From Escherichia coli (lineage in GTDB: Bacteria > Pseudomonadota > Gammaproteobacteria > Enterobacterales > Enterobacteriaceae): a stretch of 64,000 bases of DNA. Positions 36,129-44,837 of the stretch are shown here, in pieces. The stretch is taken from NCBI RefSeq assembly GCF_013315695.1, contig NZ_CP054353.1; one strand, 5' to 3'. The position numbers were made by a program, and so were the translations under genes. Each line of letters starts with the position of its first letter. Within the stretch, counting starts at the first letter, position 1. Under the pieces are notes generated by a model. The model had not been told where the DNA came from, did no database searches, and saw nothing but the letters and a program-made list of their open reading frames with translations.

Positions 36129-36427
36129 AATGGCTCACTCAAGCTTGCTCACGATTGATTCCAGTAACAAACCGTATTGTGTAATTATTTCTATAGCAGG
36201 TCGCTATATAGGATTGTATATATCGAATAATTTGAAAATCAAAGAGATAGGTAGATTTTCACTCGAAAGTAGTATTACGTGTAAGTGAGGAGTAATTATT
36301 GTTCGGTATCAAAGGGAGACAAAAAAAGCGCCCGCAGGAGATTTAACACACCTTACTCCCCTTGATGATTTACTTATTTTTCAATGACTAAATCAAAACA
36401 AGGGGAGCAAATTAACGCAAATTACAA
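36129..36427. promoter_or_regulatory. dmsA upstream region containing the presumed prophage attachment junction
   Basis: AT-rich 300-bp spacer between dmsA start and the 3' end of the phage integrase; segment AAAAAAAGCGCCCGCAGGAGATTT at about 36321-36344 partly resembles a P2-type att core as I recall it. Confidence 0.3.
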
Positions 36428-37420
36428 CTAGTCAATGGACAGTTTATGGACACTATCAGCCAGCGGATTAAAGCTAATCGCATCCTGTAAAAAGTCCGGT
36501 GAAAAATGCGCATACGTCATCGTTTGTTGAATCGTGGCGTGCCCAAGGATTCGCTGTAACGTAACGATATTTCCGCCGTTCATCATGAAATGCGTGGCGA
36601 ACGTGTGACGCATAACGTGAGTCGCCTGACCTTTGGGTAAATCCGGTTTCACCTCCTGAAGGATATCCCGAAAACGGATGTAATCAGCCTGGTACAATAG
36701 CCCGGTTTTTCGGGTTTTTATCAACGAAAGCACCGTATCAGAAACAGGAACCGCGCGGGATTTTCCATTCTTTGTGTTAAAGAACATTACGCGGTTACCA
36801 ACGATATGCTCACCACGTAAGCCAGCTGCTTCCCCCCACCTTGCGCCAGTGGAAAGACACAGAACAGCAACACGACGCGCATCCCCCTCGAGTCGTTCAA
36901 GCAGCCGATCAATCTCATCATCTGAAAGAAAGGCCATTTCTGTATTCCTGACCTTGAGCTTACGTATTCCACGCACCGGGTTTTCGTTATGGAAAACCTC
37001 CGCATCAATCAACGCAGTAAACATTGCAGACAAGGCGCACAAATCACGATTAACACTGGAGGGCATTAATCCGGCCTGTAATTTGTCTGAACGATACCCG
37101 AGCATAAACTTTCGCGTCATCTCACTGGCGCGGGGGTCCCTCATCTCACGGTTTATTTTTTCCAGCCTGACCCTGTAAGTATCCCCGTAAGGCTGATTCC
37201 GGCCATCAAGCACCCACCAGGCATCTATCAGTTCGGATAACCGACGCTGATCAGCTGGCTTGGCCTGCCACGGTTTATCGTGGAAATTCTGCAAAACATA
37301 CCTTTCAAACTCCTGTGCCTTTGACTTCAGGGTAAAAATCTTACGGATCCGCTTTCCTTCCGTCCCTTGCGGTCTTACATCAACCTTATAACGCCCGTCT
37401 TTGAGTTGCTTAATCGACAT
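36428..37420 (-). CDS. int: P2-type tyrosine integrase
   Basis: Start MSIKQLKDGRYKVDVRPQG; C-terminal tyrosine-recombinase catalytic motifs HVMRHTFATHF and LGHATIQQTMTYAH. Confidence 0.9.
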   Translation of the reverse strand: MSIKQLKDGRYKVDVRPQGTEGKRIRKIFTLKSKAQEFERYVLQNFHDKPWQAKPADQRRLSELIDAWWVLDGRNQPYGDTYRVRLEKINREMRDPRASEMTRKFMLGYRSDKLQAGLMPSSVNRDLCALSAMFTALIDAEVFHNENPVRGIRKLKVRNTEMAFLSDDEIDRLLERLEGDARRVAVLCLSTGARWGEAAGLRGEHIVGNRVMFFNTKNGKSRAVPVSDTVLSLIKTRKTGLLYQADYIRFRDILQEVKPDLPKGQATHVMRHTFATHFMMNGGNIVTLQRILGHATIQQTMTYAHFSPDFLQDAISFNPLADSVHKLSID

Positions 37421-37489
37421 GATTAGCCCCTCCAACGGATGAATCAGCCGTACACTCTCTACGGGATGAAACCCGCTCGATGTACAGCG

Positions 37490-37831
37490 TTAGCCAGCAT
37501 TGCGACGAGATCGGGGTGATTTTTGGGTAATGCCGATTGAAACCTGATCGCCCTCCGACTGAATGGAGCCATCAAGAGAGAGAGCCGGAGCTATCTGACC
37601 GGCAGCAGGCATTGTCTTATCTTTTATTAGCCACATCATGTATTTTTCAAACCGATCAACTTGGAGAACCATCTCAACAATTTTGGCTCTGGCGCTTTTT
37701 TGCCCTGATTCATAGTTCCTTATGGCAGCTAAAGACAACCCCGTAATATCCGCAAATTCCTTTTGCGTTAGCCCTTCAGCCTTGCGTATTTGACGTAGCT
37801 TTTTTGCATAGTCTATTGACAAGATAACCAT
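37490..37831 (-). CDS. P2 C-like immunity repressor (HTH)
   Basis: 113-aa ORF with HTH LTQKEFADITGLSLAAIRNYESG and GQIAPAL motif; adjacent to int in the same orientation. Confidence 0.75.
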   Translation of the reverse strand: MVILSIDYAKKLRQIRKAEGLTQKEFADITGLSLAAIRNYESGQKSARAKIVEMVLQVDRFEKYMMWLIKDKTMPAAGQIAPALSLDGSIQSEGDQVSIGITQKSPRSRRNAG

Positions 37832-37935
37832 TTGAGTATTAACCTCTCGCGAAAGATACTCGTGCGAGTATCTTTTATAAACCTAAACAAACCTTCATGA
37901 GGCGCGACAAGCGCACCAACGCAAGAGGATAGCAA
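37832..37935. promoter_or_regulatory. divergent lysogenic/early promoter switch region
   Basis: About 100-bp spacer between the divergent repressor and cox-like genes. Confidence 0.5.
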
Positions 37936-38460: not shown

Positions 38461-38544
38461 CATCAAAACAAACCGGCAACAGCGAAATCCCAGGAATGAG
38501 ATTTCGCCGCAGATGCTGTGGAAAATGGTTGTTATGCAAGCAGC

Positions 38545-38955
38545 CTACCAGGCTGATGGATGATCATCATCAATATCAAACACATTTCTGTAAAAACGAG
38601 AATGTTGCAAGGGATGAATAAGCGACCCCCAACAATCATAAATATCAGCCAGTTCGAACACATCGTATGAGAGATGTTGAGCAAACGATTCGGCACCTTC
38701 AAAAGACTCAAACACCTCATCATACAAGTGAATGTTTTCAGGATACGAAAGTGACAAGCAAAAACCAGACGTAGATTCCGTAACCAAGAAGACAAGGTGA
38801 TATTTATCATTCACCAGTGACTGAGCACATTTTTTTACAGAGCGAAGAATCACAGGGGAACGCGCGCCAATACGAAAGAGTTCTGCATGAGCACGGGCAT
38901 CAACAAAACTGTGAAACCCCTCACTTCTTGCAAGCTCACGTTCGGCAGCACGCAA
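38545..38955 (-). CDS. hypothetical protein, reverse-oriented inside the early operon
   Basis: 136-aa ORF on the opposite strand to the flanking early genes. Confidence 0.4.
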   Translation of the reverse strand: MRAAERELARSEGFHSFVDARAHAELFRIGARSPVILRSVKKCAQSLVNDKYHLVFLVTESTSGFCLSLSYPENIHLYDEVFESFEGAESFAQHLSYDVFELADIYDCWGSLIHPLQHSRFYRNVFDIDDDHPSAW

Positions 38956-39000
38956 AACCCAAAATCACCGCCCAGATTCGGATGTAAGGATAATTTTCAT

Positions 39001-39264
39001 ATGAATAAAGAGAAATCTCCGGATTATTTTGTGAAACGATTACAGGATGCAACAGAGTCAATGTTGATTGCCCTGAATAATTACTCTTACGAAGAGGCCG
39101 TAACGGTACTTGAGTGGATAAAGGAAAAAATAACGGAAGACAGCATCGTCAAGATGCAGAGTATCAACATCTCCCGTGACAAAACATTTCCACTGCGAAT
39201 ACCGCCAAAACGACGACTGGTTTACTCGATACCAGTCTCAATGCAGTGCAAATTGCCGAAATAG
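39001..39264 (+). CDS. hypothetical early protein
   Basis: 87 aa from MNKEKSPDYFVKRLQD with AAGGA Shine-Dalgarno upstream; divergent from 38545-38955. Confidence 0.4.
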   Translation: MNKEKSPDYFVKRLQDATESMLIALNNYSYEEAVTVLEWIKEKITEDSIVKMQSINISRDKTFPLRIPPKRRLVYSIPVSMQCKLPK

Positions 39265-39359
39265 TTTATGAGAAAACATAAATACTCCTTTGTGTGGTTG
39301 GTTATCGTTACAACAGTTCGGGCAAGAATTGCAAGGCGTAACGAAATTACCACAAAACC

Positions 39360-39761
39360 ATGCGCCGGGCATGGCTAAAAACCCGGCACAAATTCACAGC
39401 AGCAGTAGGGATTTTTATGAAGAAACCGGGAAATTTTTCACAGCAGAATTTTCGAACAAGTGCCGAACGCCACGTTGCACGCCAGCACTTCCGCAAAAAT
39501 AGTGCGACCACAACCACTGAAATCCATGCCACACCAGACGGTCACCCGGTAAAACAAACCGGCAAGCACACCTGGACGATTGGCGACACTGGCATCGTTA
39601 TTCACAAAAGTTTTCGCAGCCCTGTTACTGGCAGATTTAATTTCACCCTGACTCGCGGGGATGATTACTTCGGACAGGACTTCACATTTTTTGAAGCCTT
39701 AAGAACGGCAGACAGATTAATCAGCGGCCTGCGTTTTCAATATCCGGGAAGCAAGCACTGA
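39360..39761 (+). CDS. hypothetical early protein
   Basis: 133-aa ORF, start uncertain. Confidence 0.3.
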   Translation: MRRAWLKTRHKFTAAVGIFMKKPGNFSQQNFRTSAERHVARQHFRKNSATTTTEIHATPDGHPVKQTGKHTWTIGDTGIVIHKSFRSPVTGRFNFTLTRGDDYFGQDFTFFEALRTADRLISGLRFQYPGSKH

Positions 39762-41169: not shown

Positions 41170-41402
41170 GGTGAAGCCATGGTCGCCATCCTGAATGTGT
41201 GTTGCTGCCCCCCCCTGAACGTGGAAAGAAAAGCCCGCGCATCGCTGCGTTTATTCCGCGACGGCGTGCGGAATTTTTCACGCATAAAACCCCACGACTA
41301 CCTGGTAATAAGAATCGGTTTTCGCTGGCGATTGCTGAGCAAAAACAACGGGGCGTCATGGGATTTATTAACGCACGAAACCTATAACAAAGAGGCCGCG
41401 TT

Positions 41403-42347
41403 ATGAGCAAAGAACTGTTATCCGGCACGCCGCTTAAATGGGTGGGCGGAAAAAGTCGCATCATGAACACACTGAAGGCGCATCTGCCAGAAGCAGACTG
41501 CCTGGTTGAGCCGTTTGTGGGTGGCGCATCGGTATTCATGAACACCAGTTACAAGCGTTACATCCTGGGTGATTCCAATGGTGCGCTGATTAATTTCTAC
41601 CGGCAAGCCAGGGACAACACCGACAGCCTGATCGACGAGGCGAAAACCCTGTTCCTGAACCACAACAACAGGGGTGACTATCTCATCATTCGCGAAACCT
41701 TTAACGCAGAGAATCATGCCTTCCTGAACAGCAGAACGGGAATAAGCGACCGCCGTGAACTGCGACTGGCCGCCATGTTTTTGTACCTGAACCGACACAG
41801 CTTTAACGGTTTGTTCCGCGTGAACGGAAAAGGCGATTTTAACGTGCCTTTCGGCTGCTACCGCAAGCCCTACTTCCCTGAGCGTGAAATCCGCGCATTT
41901 GCAGACAAGGCAAACAGCACCCGAACGCTGCTTATCCACGCAGATTTTAAGGATACGCTGAACTCTGCCAGTCACCTGTTCGGCATGGGCAACACGCTTT
42001 GCGTGTACTGCGATCCCCCTTACCTGCAATTCAGTGGCCGGGACAATTTTACCGCCTACGGAAAACCATTCGATGAAGACGAGCACGTTCGTCTGAGGGC
42101 AGCGCTCGACCGCCTTTCACAGGAAACGGGCGGCATGACCAGCATCACCATCTCCAATTCCGACACACCGGAAACACGACGCATTTATCGGGGTTACCGG
42201 ATGAACTGCATACAGGCACCACGAAGCGTTGGCGCAAGAACCCGGGAATCAGCACCGGAGGTTATCGCCACCCTGAGATGCATCACATCCGCCTTATCAA
42301 CGGTTCGCACTTCTGCGCCACGAACATGGAAGAAGTACGCGTGCTGA
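41403..42347 (+). CDS. dam: DNA N6-adenine methyltransferase (Dam-like)
   Basis: 314 aa with CDPPY catalytic motif and FVGGASVF SAM-binding region. Confidence 0.85.
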   Translation: MSKELLSGTPLKWVGGKSRIMNTLKAHLPEADCLVEPFVGGASVFMNTSYKRYILGDSNGALINFYRQARDNTDSLIDEAKTLFLNHNNRGDYLIIRETFNAENHAFLNSRTGISDRRELRLAAMFLYLNRHSFNGLFRVNGKGDFNVPFGCYRKPYFPEREIRAFADKANSTRTLLIHADFKDTLNSASHLFGMGNTLCVYCDPPYLQFSGRDNFTAYGKPFDEDEHVRLRAALDRLSQETGGMTSITISNSDTPETRRIYRGYRMNCIQAPRSVGARTRESAPEVIATLRCITSALSTVRTSAPRTWKKYAC

Positions 42348-42375: not shown

Positions 42376-42726
42376 ATGGCAGTGATTTATATCGCCGGTC
42401 CCATGACCGGATGCAAAGACCACAACAGGACGGCATTTTGCGTGGAGGACCTGAAACTTCGGTGCGCCGGAAACATCGTTCTTAATCCTGCCGTACTGCC
42501 TGACGGATTAAGCCAGCAGCAGTACATGAGTATTTGTATTCCGATGCTCATGTGCGCCGATGCCATTTACTTACTGGATGGATGGGAAGAGTCCGCTGGC
42601 GCACGGGCTGAGTACGCAATGGCGCTCAAACTGAACATGCATGTGTCATTCCCGGAAAACCGGGCAGCCGGCGAAACCGTCGCGCAGCTGCTTCACAAAT
42701 CAAAAGCCGCACAGGCGACTGAGTAA
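42376..42726 (+). CDS. nucleoside 2-deoxyribosyltransferase-like / DUF4406-like small protein
   Basis: 116 aa starting MAVIYIAGPMTG (Rossmann-like YxAGP motif). Confidence 0.45.
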   Translation: MAVIYIAGPMTGCKDHNRTAFCVEDLKLRCAGNIVLNPAVLPDGLSQQQYMSICIPMLMCADAIYLLDGWEESAGARAEYAMALKLNMHVSFPENRAAGETVAQLLHKSKAAQATE

Positions 42727-43164
42727 CCGACCGGAGATCGAAACATGATTGCGCGCAGAGCTACCAACCGTCTCACAGGCTTTATTCCAGGCAAGGTTGA
42801 TCATGCACTCCATCACGGGGCTGTCACTTTCCTCAACAAAGGAGAGGCGCGCAATCATGCATTCCGGGGTGAGCATGTGGCGCTGGCTAATCAGTCTTTG
42901 ATAGCTAAGCGCCTGCCATTCAGCCTTTTCAGCTCTGATAGAAAGAGAGGAAGCCATGACCTGCCACACCAGAAAGAGCACCACACTGGCGAAAACAAAC
43001 GTTGCGCTGTCGCAAAAAATGAATGCGGCAACAATCGCAAGGAAAGCGCTAATCCTCAGAACCAAGGAAGCGCGACGGTGGAGAAGGCTTGTCATGTGTT
43101 CAAGCCAGTAGCTGTACCACAGGTCAAAAAGAATTTCGTAATCAGAAGGGAGCTTATCACTCAT
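42700..43164 (-). CDS. hypothetical membrane protein, convergent with the dam module
   Basis: About 154 aa from MSDKLPSDYEILFDLWYSYW with two hydrophobic helices; start lies 16 bp from the left edge of the tandem repeat. Confidence 0.4.
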   Translation of the reverse strand: MSDKLPSDYEILFDLWYSYWLEHMTSLLHRRASLVLRISAFLAIVAAFIFCDSATFVFASVVLFLVWQVMASSLSIRAEKAEWQALSYQRLISQRHMLTPECMIARLSFVEESDSPVMECMINLAWNKACETVGSSARNHVSISGRLLSRLCGF

Positions 43165-43547
43165 CAGAAACACCCCGCGTATGCAGACAATCACCAGTTG
43201 CCAGGTGATATTAATTCGCAACATTCTAACCACATCAGCACGCAACACAAAAACCGCTTGCCAGCGCTCGTCGTGTCAGGTTACATTTCCGCTGCACCTC
43301 ATAAAACGGGTGCCGGGTTTCGCAGCCTGCTGACAACCAAAGCGCACAACCGCGCCAGCGGTTTTTTTGTGCGTACTGTATTGCCACGTCTTTTTCGCGT
43401 CAGAATTATGGCGGGGCGTACGGGGCCGACTTCGGTCGGGCCGGGTTCTTTGCTAGCCGGTACTGCGAACCTCGTACGTCTCGCCACCCACAGTTTCGCA
43501 GCTCTGGATGGTGAGTTTTCACAACTTACTAGCAAAGAGGCCACACC

Positions 43548-43769
43548 ATGGCAAACCGCAAGCAACAGCGCGCCCGCGCTGAGCGTCTTCACATCCGCAG
43601 CGAAATCAACCGCAGACTTTTCCGCGCAACACGCGTCGCGCAAATCATGCATATCAACATGCTGCATGAGCGCACGCACGCACTATCAAACCGTTACTGC
43701 GCTGCTGTCTTCAGCTATCTCGCCGAAGATCTGGCAGAACTGCAAAGCCTCATCAACCAGCACCGATAA
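43548..43769 (+). CDS. small basic protein (73 aa), copy 1
   Basis: MANRKQQRARAERLHIRSEINRRLFRATRVAQ..., AAAGAGG Shine-Dalgarno; identical copy at 44377-44598. Confidence 0.45.
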   Translation: MANRKQQRARAERLHIRSEINRRLFRATRVAQIMHINMLHERTHALSNRYCAAVFSYLAEDLAELQSLINQHR

Positions 43770-44008: not shown

Positions 44009-44837
44009 TATGCAGACAATCACCAGTTGCCAGGTGATATTAATTCGCAACATTCTAACCACATCAGCACGCAACACAAAAACCGCTTGCCAGCGCTCGT
44101 CGTGTCGGGTTACATTTCCGCTGCACCTCATAAAACGGGTGCCGGGTTTCGCAGCCTGCCGACTAGCAAAGCGCACAACCGCGCCAGCGGTTTTTTTGTG
44201 CGTACTGTATTGCCACGTCTTTTTCGCGTCAGAATTATGGCGGGGCGTACGGGGCCGACTTCGGTCGGGCCGGGTTCTTTGCTAGCCGGTACTGCGAACC
44301 TCGTACGTCTCGCCACCCACAGTTTCGCAGCTCTGGATGGTGAGTTTTCACAACTTACTAGCAAAGAGGCCACACCATGGCAAACCGCAAGCAACAGCGC
44401 GCCCGCGCTGAGCGTCTTCACATCCGCAGCGAAATCAACCGCAGACTTTTCCGCGCAACACGCGTCGCGCAAATCATGCATATCAACATGCTGCATGAGC
44501 GCACGCACGCACTATCAAACCGTTACTGCGCTGCTGTCTTCAGCTATCTCGCCGAAGATCTGGCAGAACTGCAAAGCCTCATCAACCAGCACCGATAAAC
44601 CACATCCGGAAGCTATCCCACACCTGCACGCGGGAGGCTTCCGCACGTCTGTTACCGGAGGTTCTCATGAAGAGCGTTAAGGGACTTTCAGATATTCAGG
44701 ACTTCTTTAACTGGATGTGGGCGGTGGATCCCCTGCTGGCTTCCCGCCTGAACAACTGGCACGACTATTACCGCCGCGCCTGTAAACAGGCTGCCCGCAG
44801 CGTCACCACATACGGGGATTTCTCCTTCACCGTGGAC
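44009..44837 (+). repeat. tandem duplication, unit 2 (829 bp)
   Basis: See unit 1. Confidence 0.85.
44377..44598 (+). CDS. small basic protein (73 aa), copy 2
   Basis: Identical translation to 43548-43769. Confidence 0.45.
   Translation: MANRKQQRARAERLHIRSEINRRLFRATRVAQIMHINMLHERTHALSNRYCAAVFSYLAEDLAELQSLINQHR

Follow-up and report, generated by a model that had tools for sequence, protein, structure and literature searches.

A head-to-head pair of genes in a P2-like (Peduoviridae) prophage of E. coli, with start codons that abut and a conserved structured element alongside, constitutes a rare, acquired and replaceable accessory cassette of P2-like prophages. The pair is read here, with a probability of roughly 40%, as a lysogeny-oriented cargo gene and a lytic-oriented partner whose expression would be mutually exclusive and coupled by antisense transcription. 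The locus was analysed within the window, a stretch of 64,000 nucleotides from an E. coli chromosome, in which the prophage lies beside dmsA (Table 1). The architecture of the pair and the neighbouring element appear to be undescribed, and the protein families are rare and uncharacterised.

Table 1 Positions of the gene pair, the conserved element and flanking features in the window
Feature	Position	Strand	Remarks
Integrase	36428-37435	-	
HTH repressor	37490-37831	-	
Cox-like early gene, 174 aa	37936-38460	+	convergent with the large gene
Replaceable cassette	38477-39462		breakpoints 38476/38477 and 39462/39463 against L002 (BLAST)
Hairpin GCGAAATC...GATTTCGC	38482-38507	-	38 nt past the large-gene stop
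Large gene, 151 codons when intact	38545-39000	-	interrupted here; the 136-aa TTG ORF 38545-38955 is the remainder
Premature TGA, codon 12	38965-38967	-	TGG (Trp) in other alleles
Junction CATATG	38998-39003		start codons abut with zero spacer; identical in 12/12 loci, 7 lineages
Small gene, 87 aa	39001-39264	+	co-oriented with the early lytic operon
Putative mini-ORF, 13 codons	39238-39279	-	13-27 codons in other lineages; SD AAGGAG is the complement of 39285-39290
Conserved unannotated structured element	39284-39388	+	covariance model, 84.4 bits, one copy in the window
DUF4761 early gene	39417-39761	+	RefSeq start

Architecture and conservation of the gene pair

The pair is adjacent and divergent in 12 of 12 loci, among them loci of E. 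coli, Salmonella enterica, Trabulsiella odontotermitis and metagenomic contigs, with identities as low as 28% for the large protein, which diverges the faster of the two, and 46% for the small one. At every locus examined the small gene is accompanied by the large gene, which shares the direction of the repressor and integrase; the small gene itself reads the same way as cox and the early operon. Where the pair lies with respect to cox is not constant: it comes before cox in L019 and L021 and after it in the window, L006, L023 and L025. Both genes have dN/dS values of 0.12-0.53, indicating purifying selection and hence that both encode proteins. The ORFs described in the first-pass annotation, which had left it to comparison with related prophages to show whether they were conserved and coding, are therefore conserved in 7 lineages and are not chance ORFs.

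SD-like purine runs are found 7-12 nt upstream of each start, within codons 3-5 of the partner gene, as read from the junction alignment; on sequence reading, loci of the E. coli lineage have a degraded SD for the large gene. As each ribosome binding site lies inside the codons of the partner, spacer would be neither gained nor lost, which is our explanation for the invariant junction. The abutting starts and the placement of each ribosome binding site within the other gene also mean that the two mRNAs would have to overlap in antisense over the initiation regions of both genes. The possibility that the mRNAs are leaderless at the junction was rejected, given that both starts are preceded by conserved SD-like motifs. 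A position-weight scan detected no positionally conserved sigma-70 promoter near the junction for either gene.

One locus, L022 (a Logan contig, SRR28961935), is a mosaic: compared with the Salmonella type, identity is 93% in the small gene (dS 0.06) and only 48% in the large gene (dS 1.35). Its junction at 346/347 is, judged by this divergence, a recombination boundary between the two genes.

A 136-aa reverse gene and an 87-aa forward gene had been described in the first-pass annotation as a divergent pair, with coordinates that leave a 45-bp gap between them. Both ORFs are present, and RefSeq annotates the same two in a 99%-identical genome (WP_225374596, 136 aa, and WP_001031145, 87 aa). 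The divergent orientation was right and the small gene is as described; the reverse ORF, however, is what remains of a 151-codon gene, and the supposed gap (38956-39000) is coding in intact alleles. Where the reverse gene really begins, that a stop codon interrupts it early and that the two start codons touch had all been missed. Homologues of the large protein are 148-162 aa long and start 45 nt upstream of the annotated TTG start, and intact alleles of 151 aa begin at the ATG at 39000-38998. From this ATG the window reads MKIILTSESGR*FWVLRAAE..., the asterisk marking the premature TGA. The TTG at 38953-38955 lies 9 nt downstream of this stop, where weak re-initiation could occur; the resulting product would, according to the structural model described below, have lost the whole first strand and most of the second strand of repeat 1. 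Judged from its reading frame, the large gene is probably non-functional here, and the module in the window probably fails to supply the large protein.

The same nonsense allele is found in two other complete genomes, MSB1_4I and STEC17-183. The large gene is intact in E. coli ED1a, for whose locus tags a literature search found nothing, and is annotated as an intact 151-aa gene in G1/2; G6/7 and G8 were matched at the same 99.7% identity as G1/2, the allele state being read from the G1/2 annotation alone. In a large protein collection the truncated allele is in the minority (approximately 163 contigs, against approximately 796 with the intact allele), and the 87-aa protein is present on at least 1000 contigs of the same collection.

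The hairpin that follows the large gene folds at -27.6 kcal/mol on the minus strand and -24.2 kcal/mol on the plus strand, with a z of -1.7 that is not significant. Its minus-strand stem is longer owing to G-U pairs and a U-rich stretch follows at a distance, making it a possible weak terminator of the leftward transcript. No canonical terminator was found by consensus scan, including after the large gene and between the mini-ORF and the large gene.

The small protein is predicted to form a helical hairpin (residues ~7-46) followed by a conserved basic proline-rich tail (FPLRIPPKRRLVY); this secondary structure is taken from a low-confidence fused model, in which the tail is predicted to be disordered. 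The 3' end of the small gene is overlapped in antisense by the putative mini-ORF, whose strong SD and start are kept in 6 of 7 lineages. The mini-ORF sits where cargo genes begin in other phages, and in pair-carrying loci the large gene begins approximately 280 nt further on.

A variable slot and its conserved element

Comparison with L002, a 97-99% identical prophage at the same site, shows that the two differ only between the breakpoints of the cassette, where L002 has 292 bp with a single 64-aa forward gene instead of the pair. Another relative carries a 131-aa forward gene and a 64-aa reverse gene. The slot between the cox-like and DUF4761 genes thus holds three different contents in dmsA-site prophages, being replaced at the same position between near-identical phages in the manner of a moron. 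The alignment with related prophages that had been proposed in the first-pass annotation therefore bears out its suggestion of an acquired module. The pair was found in 5 of 5426 complete E. coli genomes and in none of 50,697 phage records (INPHARED), a relative of it in 1 of 100,044 species-representative genomes, and the large protein is encoded by 4 IMG/VR contigs. Word-indexed deep searches returned tiny families, of 2 and 4 clusters, and an exhaustive representative search gave 11 matches.

Rightward of the pair, the plus strand carries genes for DUF4761, DUF4754, a 3'-5' exonuclease, a ParE-like protein and a Dam methylase. The first ~15 codons of the DUF4761 gene lie inside the cassette and differ among its variants; a longer ORF (39360-39761) starts inside the conserved element, and the RefSeq start is preferred because it avoids this overlap. 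The cox-like protein matches Pfam Phage_Cox at E 1.4e-5, just under threshold, and PHROG 23196, a transcriptional regulator. Phage_Cox and Phage_GPA genes are present in relatives of the locus, and the left end of the prophage is 83% identical to P88-like Escherichia phages.

Several other features of the prophage were observed. At its insertion edge, between dmsA and the integrase gene, lies the STnc130 sRNA (36219-36353, plus strand, 126 bits). A palindrome with perfect 10-bp arms, AAGATACTCG-TG-CGAGTATCTT, is located at 37853-37874 between the repressor and the cox-like gene, and is likely the immunity operator at the switch between the early and lysogenic promoters. A small ORF at 41179-41406 (plus strand) lies just 5' of the Dam methylase gene; its counterpart in near-identical genomes carries the annotation ParE family toxin-like protein, and no evident partner antitoxin is annotated there. 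Rfam gathering-level matches identified two identical copies of an isrK sRNA with a C4 antisense RNA behind it (43294-43491 and 44123-44320), within a direct repeat of at least 300 nt (43180-43479 and 44009-44308, spacing 829 nt) in the same prophage; long plus-strand ORFs over this repeat are probably artefacts of translating RNA genes. In the corresponding prophage part of the relative L016 there is a 73-aa gene with a weak match to 'Derepression' (PF25738), whose counterpart in the window may be the ORF at 43548-43769, also 73 aa, on equal length alone. A second backward-facing gene in the rightward block, at 42700-43248 (minus strand), encodes a 182-aa predicted membrane protein related, at 23-34% identity and E values as low as 1e-22, to the cargo family most often found beside the element described below in other phages; it adjoins the isrK/C4 repeat, and no copy of the element is found there.

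The conserved element lies just outside the coordinates given in the first-pass annotation, in a 152-bp spacer after the small gene that is conserved across lineages otherwise sharing little DNA. It consists of an outer helix, TTTGTGG/CCACAAA, around a variable hairpin, followed by two overlapping GC hairpins made up of a core, CCATGCGCCGGGCATGG (39358-39374), and then CTAAAAACCCGGC. The hairpin shows clear covariation, 6 of its 11 pairs having changed on both sides. Paired cells amount to 83%, compared with 35-45% in slid controls, and there are 38 compensatory cells, compared with 13.9 in shuffles (0 of 500 shuffles). No Rfam match was obtained at E up to 1 between 37000 and 41000, and none over the element at gathering thresholds in a scan of the whole window; in E. 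coli genomes no annotated feature underlies the element, among the matches listed. A relaxed pattern scan for element variants was set aside, as it returned almost entirely chance matches.

The core is found exactly in 79 IMG/VR contigs, approximately 70 of which share the same extended context. Nearly all of these contigs have, to the left of the element, a leftward-reading cargo gene that is preceded by a good SD and begins at a distance of 37-180 nt, mostly ~80 nt. The 64 cargo proteins fall into 21 unrelated clusters, are 39-161 aa long, are almost without annotation and have no match to PADLOC models. When the element is set in the same direction as in the window, the minus strand to its left carries the integrase in 49 of 50 contigs and the repressor in 39 of 39, and the plus strand to its right carries gpA in 43 of 43 and the Dam methylase in 27 of 27. 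A counter-oriented gene had been called atypical of a P2 early operon in the first-pass annotation. It may be unusual for P2 itself, but is common in the wider clade, where ~70 P2-like viral contigs carry one at the equivalent place. These observations support the assignment of the large gene as the lysogeny-oriented cargo of the slot, with the small gene read together with the lytic early operon.

In phage SEN5 the order is repressor (minus), a 158-aa gene (plus), a 60-aa gene (minus), the element and cox (plus). In the alternative E. coli cassette the covariance model also placed a variant copy of the element, immediately 5' of the reverse 64-aa gene, which belongs to the commonest cargo family. 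Two copies are present in L019 (3934-4035 and 4602-4709), the second of them directly beside another reverse gene, and three in L025 (3543-3651, 3672-3773 and 4645-4697), the strongest of the additional ones having a reverse gene nearby. Units of element plus cargo thus seem able to be stacked inside the early operon. An integron-like cassette reading of such units was rejected, since the element and the breakpoints of the cassette fall at different places.

Signals for the functional strand of the element are weak and conflicting, G-U wobble counts slightly favouring the rightward strand and folding energies slightly favouring the leftward one. Sequence reading identified a candidate leftward extended -10 (TGnTAATTT) within the element. 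Transcription from it would start inside the covarying hairpin, so that reading the element simply as a promoter with a 5' leader is not secure.

The same region bears on whether the pair could instead be a lysis-lysogeny module, in which the 87-aa protein would be a CII- or anti-repressor-type regulator of a leftward promoter in the element, the leftward transcript would interfere with early transcription, and the large protein would aid the establishment or maintenance of lysogeny. Such a geometry resembles that of lambda pRE inside cII or of 186 pE. The small gene always adjoins the element, whose 17-bp inverted repeat is operator-like, and a leftward path with no strong terminator after the large gene runs antisense through cox to the repressor and integrase. 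However, the element occurs in ~70 phages that do not have the small gene, most sister prophages have unrelated slot content and not the module, and the module is not fixed in position relative to cox. Searches with the small protein revealed neither an HTH nor any other domain that binds DNA, and the repressor region of the window has a different palindrome (37853-37874), which bears no relation to the 17-bp repeat. A regulatory module of this type is considered unlikely.

Protein folds and rival functions

Neither protein has a family in Pfam, NCBIfam or PADLOC (PADLOC-DB v2 at E up to 1). In PHROGs the large protein matches phrog_28512, which is the same protein and has no function assigned. 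A confident AF2 model of the intact large protein, built from a 10-sequence alignment (pLDDT 87.7, pTM 0.82), contains two beta-beta-beta-alpha repeats and, after them, a C-terminal segment that is packed except for its flexible acidic end. The unit that characterises the YegP/UPF0339 fold, approximately 50 residues of beta-beta-beta-alpha arranged in tandem as a pseudo-dimer, is present in the model, and the assignment of a tandem YegP/UPF0339 (DUF1508)-like fold to the large protein is moderately well supported by this prediction. The likeness to YegP/UPF0339 structures (2K49, 2K8E, 3BID and 6Q2Z) is one of fold, the sequence remaining under Pfam thresholds: the gathering score of PF07411 (DUF1508) was not reached by the window protein, P0001 or P0002, and 1 of 10 family members gave a weak, sub-threshold match (E 0.005). 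A profile search of PDB sequences returned no UPF0339 entry, and Foldseek with the model gave nothing significant and did not recover the YegP match.

In contrast to YegP, the large protein has an additional conserved C-terminal motif of ~25 residues, is confined to P2-like prophages and is always accompanied by a head-to-head partner gene. The motif, HPLQHSRxYRxxFDIxDDHPS (residues ~129-151; 38545-38616, minus strand), is the most conserved part of the protein, comprises two conserved histidines and an acidic run, after which come 2-6 variable residues, and has no family match. The acidic end is opposite in charge to the basic PPKRR motif of the partner. It also faintly recalls the C-terminal tip of SSB, a likeness that was set aside because the acidic motif stops short of the end of the chain. 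No function is reported in the literature for the YegP/DUF1508 family. Tandem DUF1508 has been described as a pseudo-dimer and proposed as the nucleic-acid-sensing N-terminal domain of the Menshen protein NsnA, and YegP genes are located downstream of capK/capS regulators.

A fold of this kind could also serve as a small, anti-CRISPR-like inhibitor scaffold, one or both proteins binding and inhibiting a host immune system or enzyme in an anti-defence or host-takeover role. The similarity of the large protein to AcrIF5, however, is at the level of generic fold matches, and the large gene is everywhere antisense to the early operon, so that it would be silenced just when needed. This role is judged quite unlikely.

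The toxin-antitoxin module suggested in the first-pass annotation, with one protein as toxin and the other as antitoxin in prophage stabilisation or abortive infection, was not borne out. Two small genes that are strictly co-inherited would suit such an addiction system, the appreciable frequency of the nonsense allele of the large gene could reflect a cost, and the acidic and basic tails could interact. However, classical type II systems are adjacent, co-transcribed operons, and here the genes are divergent in all 12 loci, a layout that favours exclusive over joint expression. Pfam, NCBIfam, PHROGs and PADLOC contain no toxin or antitoxin domain matching either protein; of the remote-homology and structure checks that had been proposed, the YegP-like fold was the positive outcome, and no toxin, antitoxin or defence family emerged. 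A fused-chain AF2 model, in which a GS linker joined the large protein to the small one and 8 paired sequences were used, reached a pTM of 0.52 with a pLDDT of 45-67 in the small part; at this low confidence it gives no support for a complex of the two, nor does it speak against one. In L022, a small protein 93% identical to the Salmonella type is found with a partner only 48% identical, which argues against tight cognate pairing. Addiction is thus very unlikely, and among the rival functions it is the one that the divergent arrangement and the swapping of alleles fit least well.

A proposed antisense-coupled cargo model and its implications

The preferred reading, of a lysogeny-oriented cargo gene with a lytic-oriented partner, may be set out as follows. 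In the lysogen, with the early promoter repressed, leftward transcription would begin in or near the conserved element, cross the small gene in antisense and then express the large protein as an accessory function of the prophage. By analogy, this function would most likely be interference with other phages, or the binding of nucleic acid or a host factor. On infection or induction, transcription from the early promoter would run antisense through the large gene, silencing it, and express the 87-aa protein, which may neutralise or replace the activity of the large protein and so permit phage replication. Mutually exclusive expression is predicted from the forced antisense overlap, as in an excludon, and an exclusion-type role is favoured by analogy with P22 sieB/esc/sas, P2 old/tin and BstA self-immunity. 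The fuller proposal is put forward only tentatively, and we regard it as doubtful: an undescribed cargo slot, marked by an orientation-fixed element (~105 nt) that combines a covarying hairpin with an almost invariant inverted repeat of 17 bp, would here hold a two-component CATATG pair whose YegP-like protein acts in the lysogen and, in the lytic cycle, is shut off by the obligatory antisense overlap and possibly neutralised by its 87-aa partner.

The sieB gene is embedded in the early region, is expressed counter to or independently of early transcription, and shares its locus with a phage escape function. A sas-sieB translational switch of P22 is mentioned in PMC7067206. The present pair may resemble P22 sieB/esc/sas, and lambda sieB, as a prophage accessory exclusion function under antisense RNA, exclusion here being drawn by analogy. 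It differs in having no sequence or fold relation to sieB and in that the partner is a separate divergent gene and not an internal in-frame product.

Excludons, described in Listeria, are divergent genes with overlapping antisense 5' transcripts. The pair shares with them divergent genes, an obligate transcript overlap and predicted exclusive expression, the 5' transcript regions being forced to overlap antisense by geometry alone. In contrast to the excludon, the overlap here is imposed by zero start-codon spacing and is set in the lysis-lysogeny switch of a phage.

In the BstA system the immunity determinant, aba, is a DNA element. BstA itself is presented as a prophage defence protein with cognate self-immunity (PMC8585504). 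The resemblance would be one of concept, an anti-phage protein of a prophage being cancelled for the phage's own lytic cycle; there is no homology, and the candidate canceller here is a protein and/or antisense transcription.

P2-like phages are known to carry a cargo hotspot between gpA and gpQ (Rousset et al. 2022, PMC9122126), and P2 has the exclusion genes old, tin and fun. The slot resembles these loci in being variable in cargo between near-identical phages. Unlike the gpA-gpQ hotspot, it lies inside the early operon, between the repressor and replication genes and not beside cos, and its cargo consists of single small genes or a pair with no PADLOC match, accompanied by the conserved element.

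The biological impact of the window's own copy is limited by the premature stop in the large gene. The pair nevertheless provides a natural test case for the control of expression by forced antisense overlap of two initiation regions, and would place a YegP/DUF1508-like protein in a setting open to phenotypic testing. Variable loci of prophages have been a productive source of new anti-phage and anti-defence systems; the slot described here differs from the cos-proximal hotspot already published, and the small uncharacterised proteins encoded in it belong to at least 21 unrelated families. The conserved element offers a simple sequence handle for locating such cargo.
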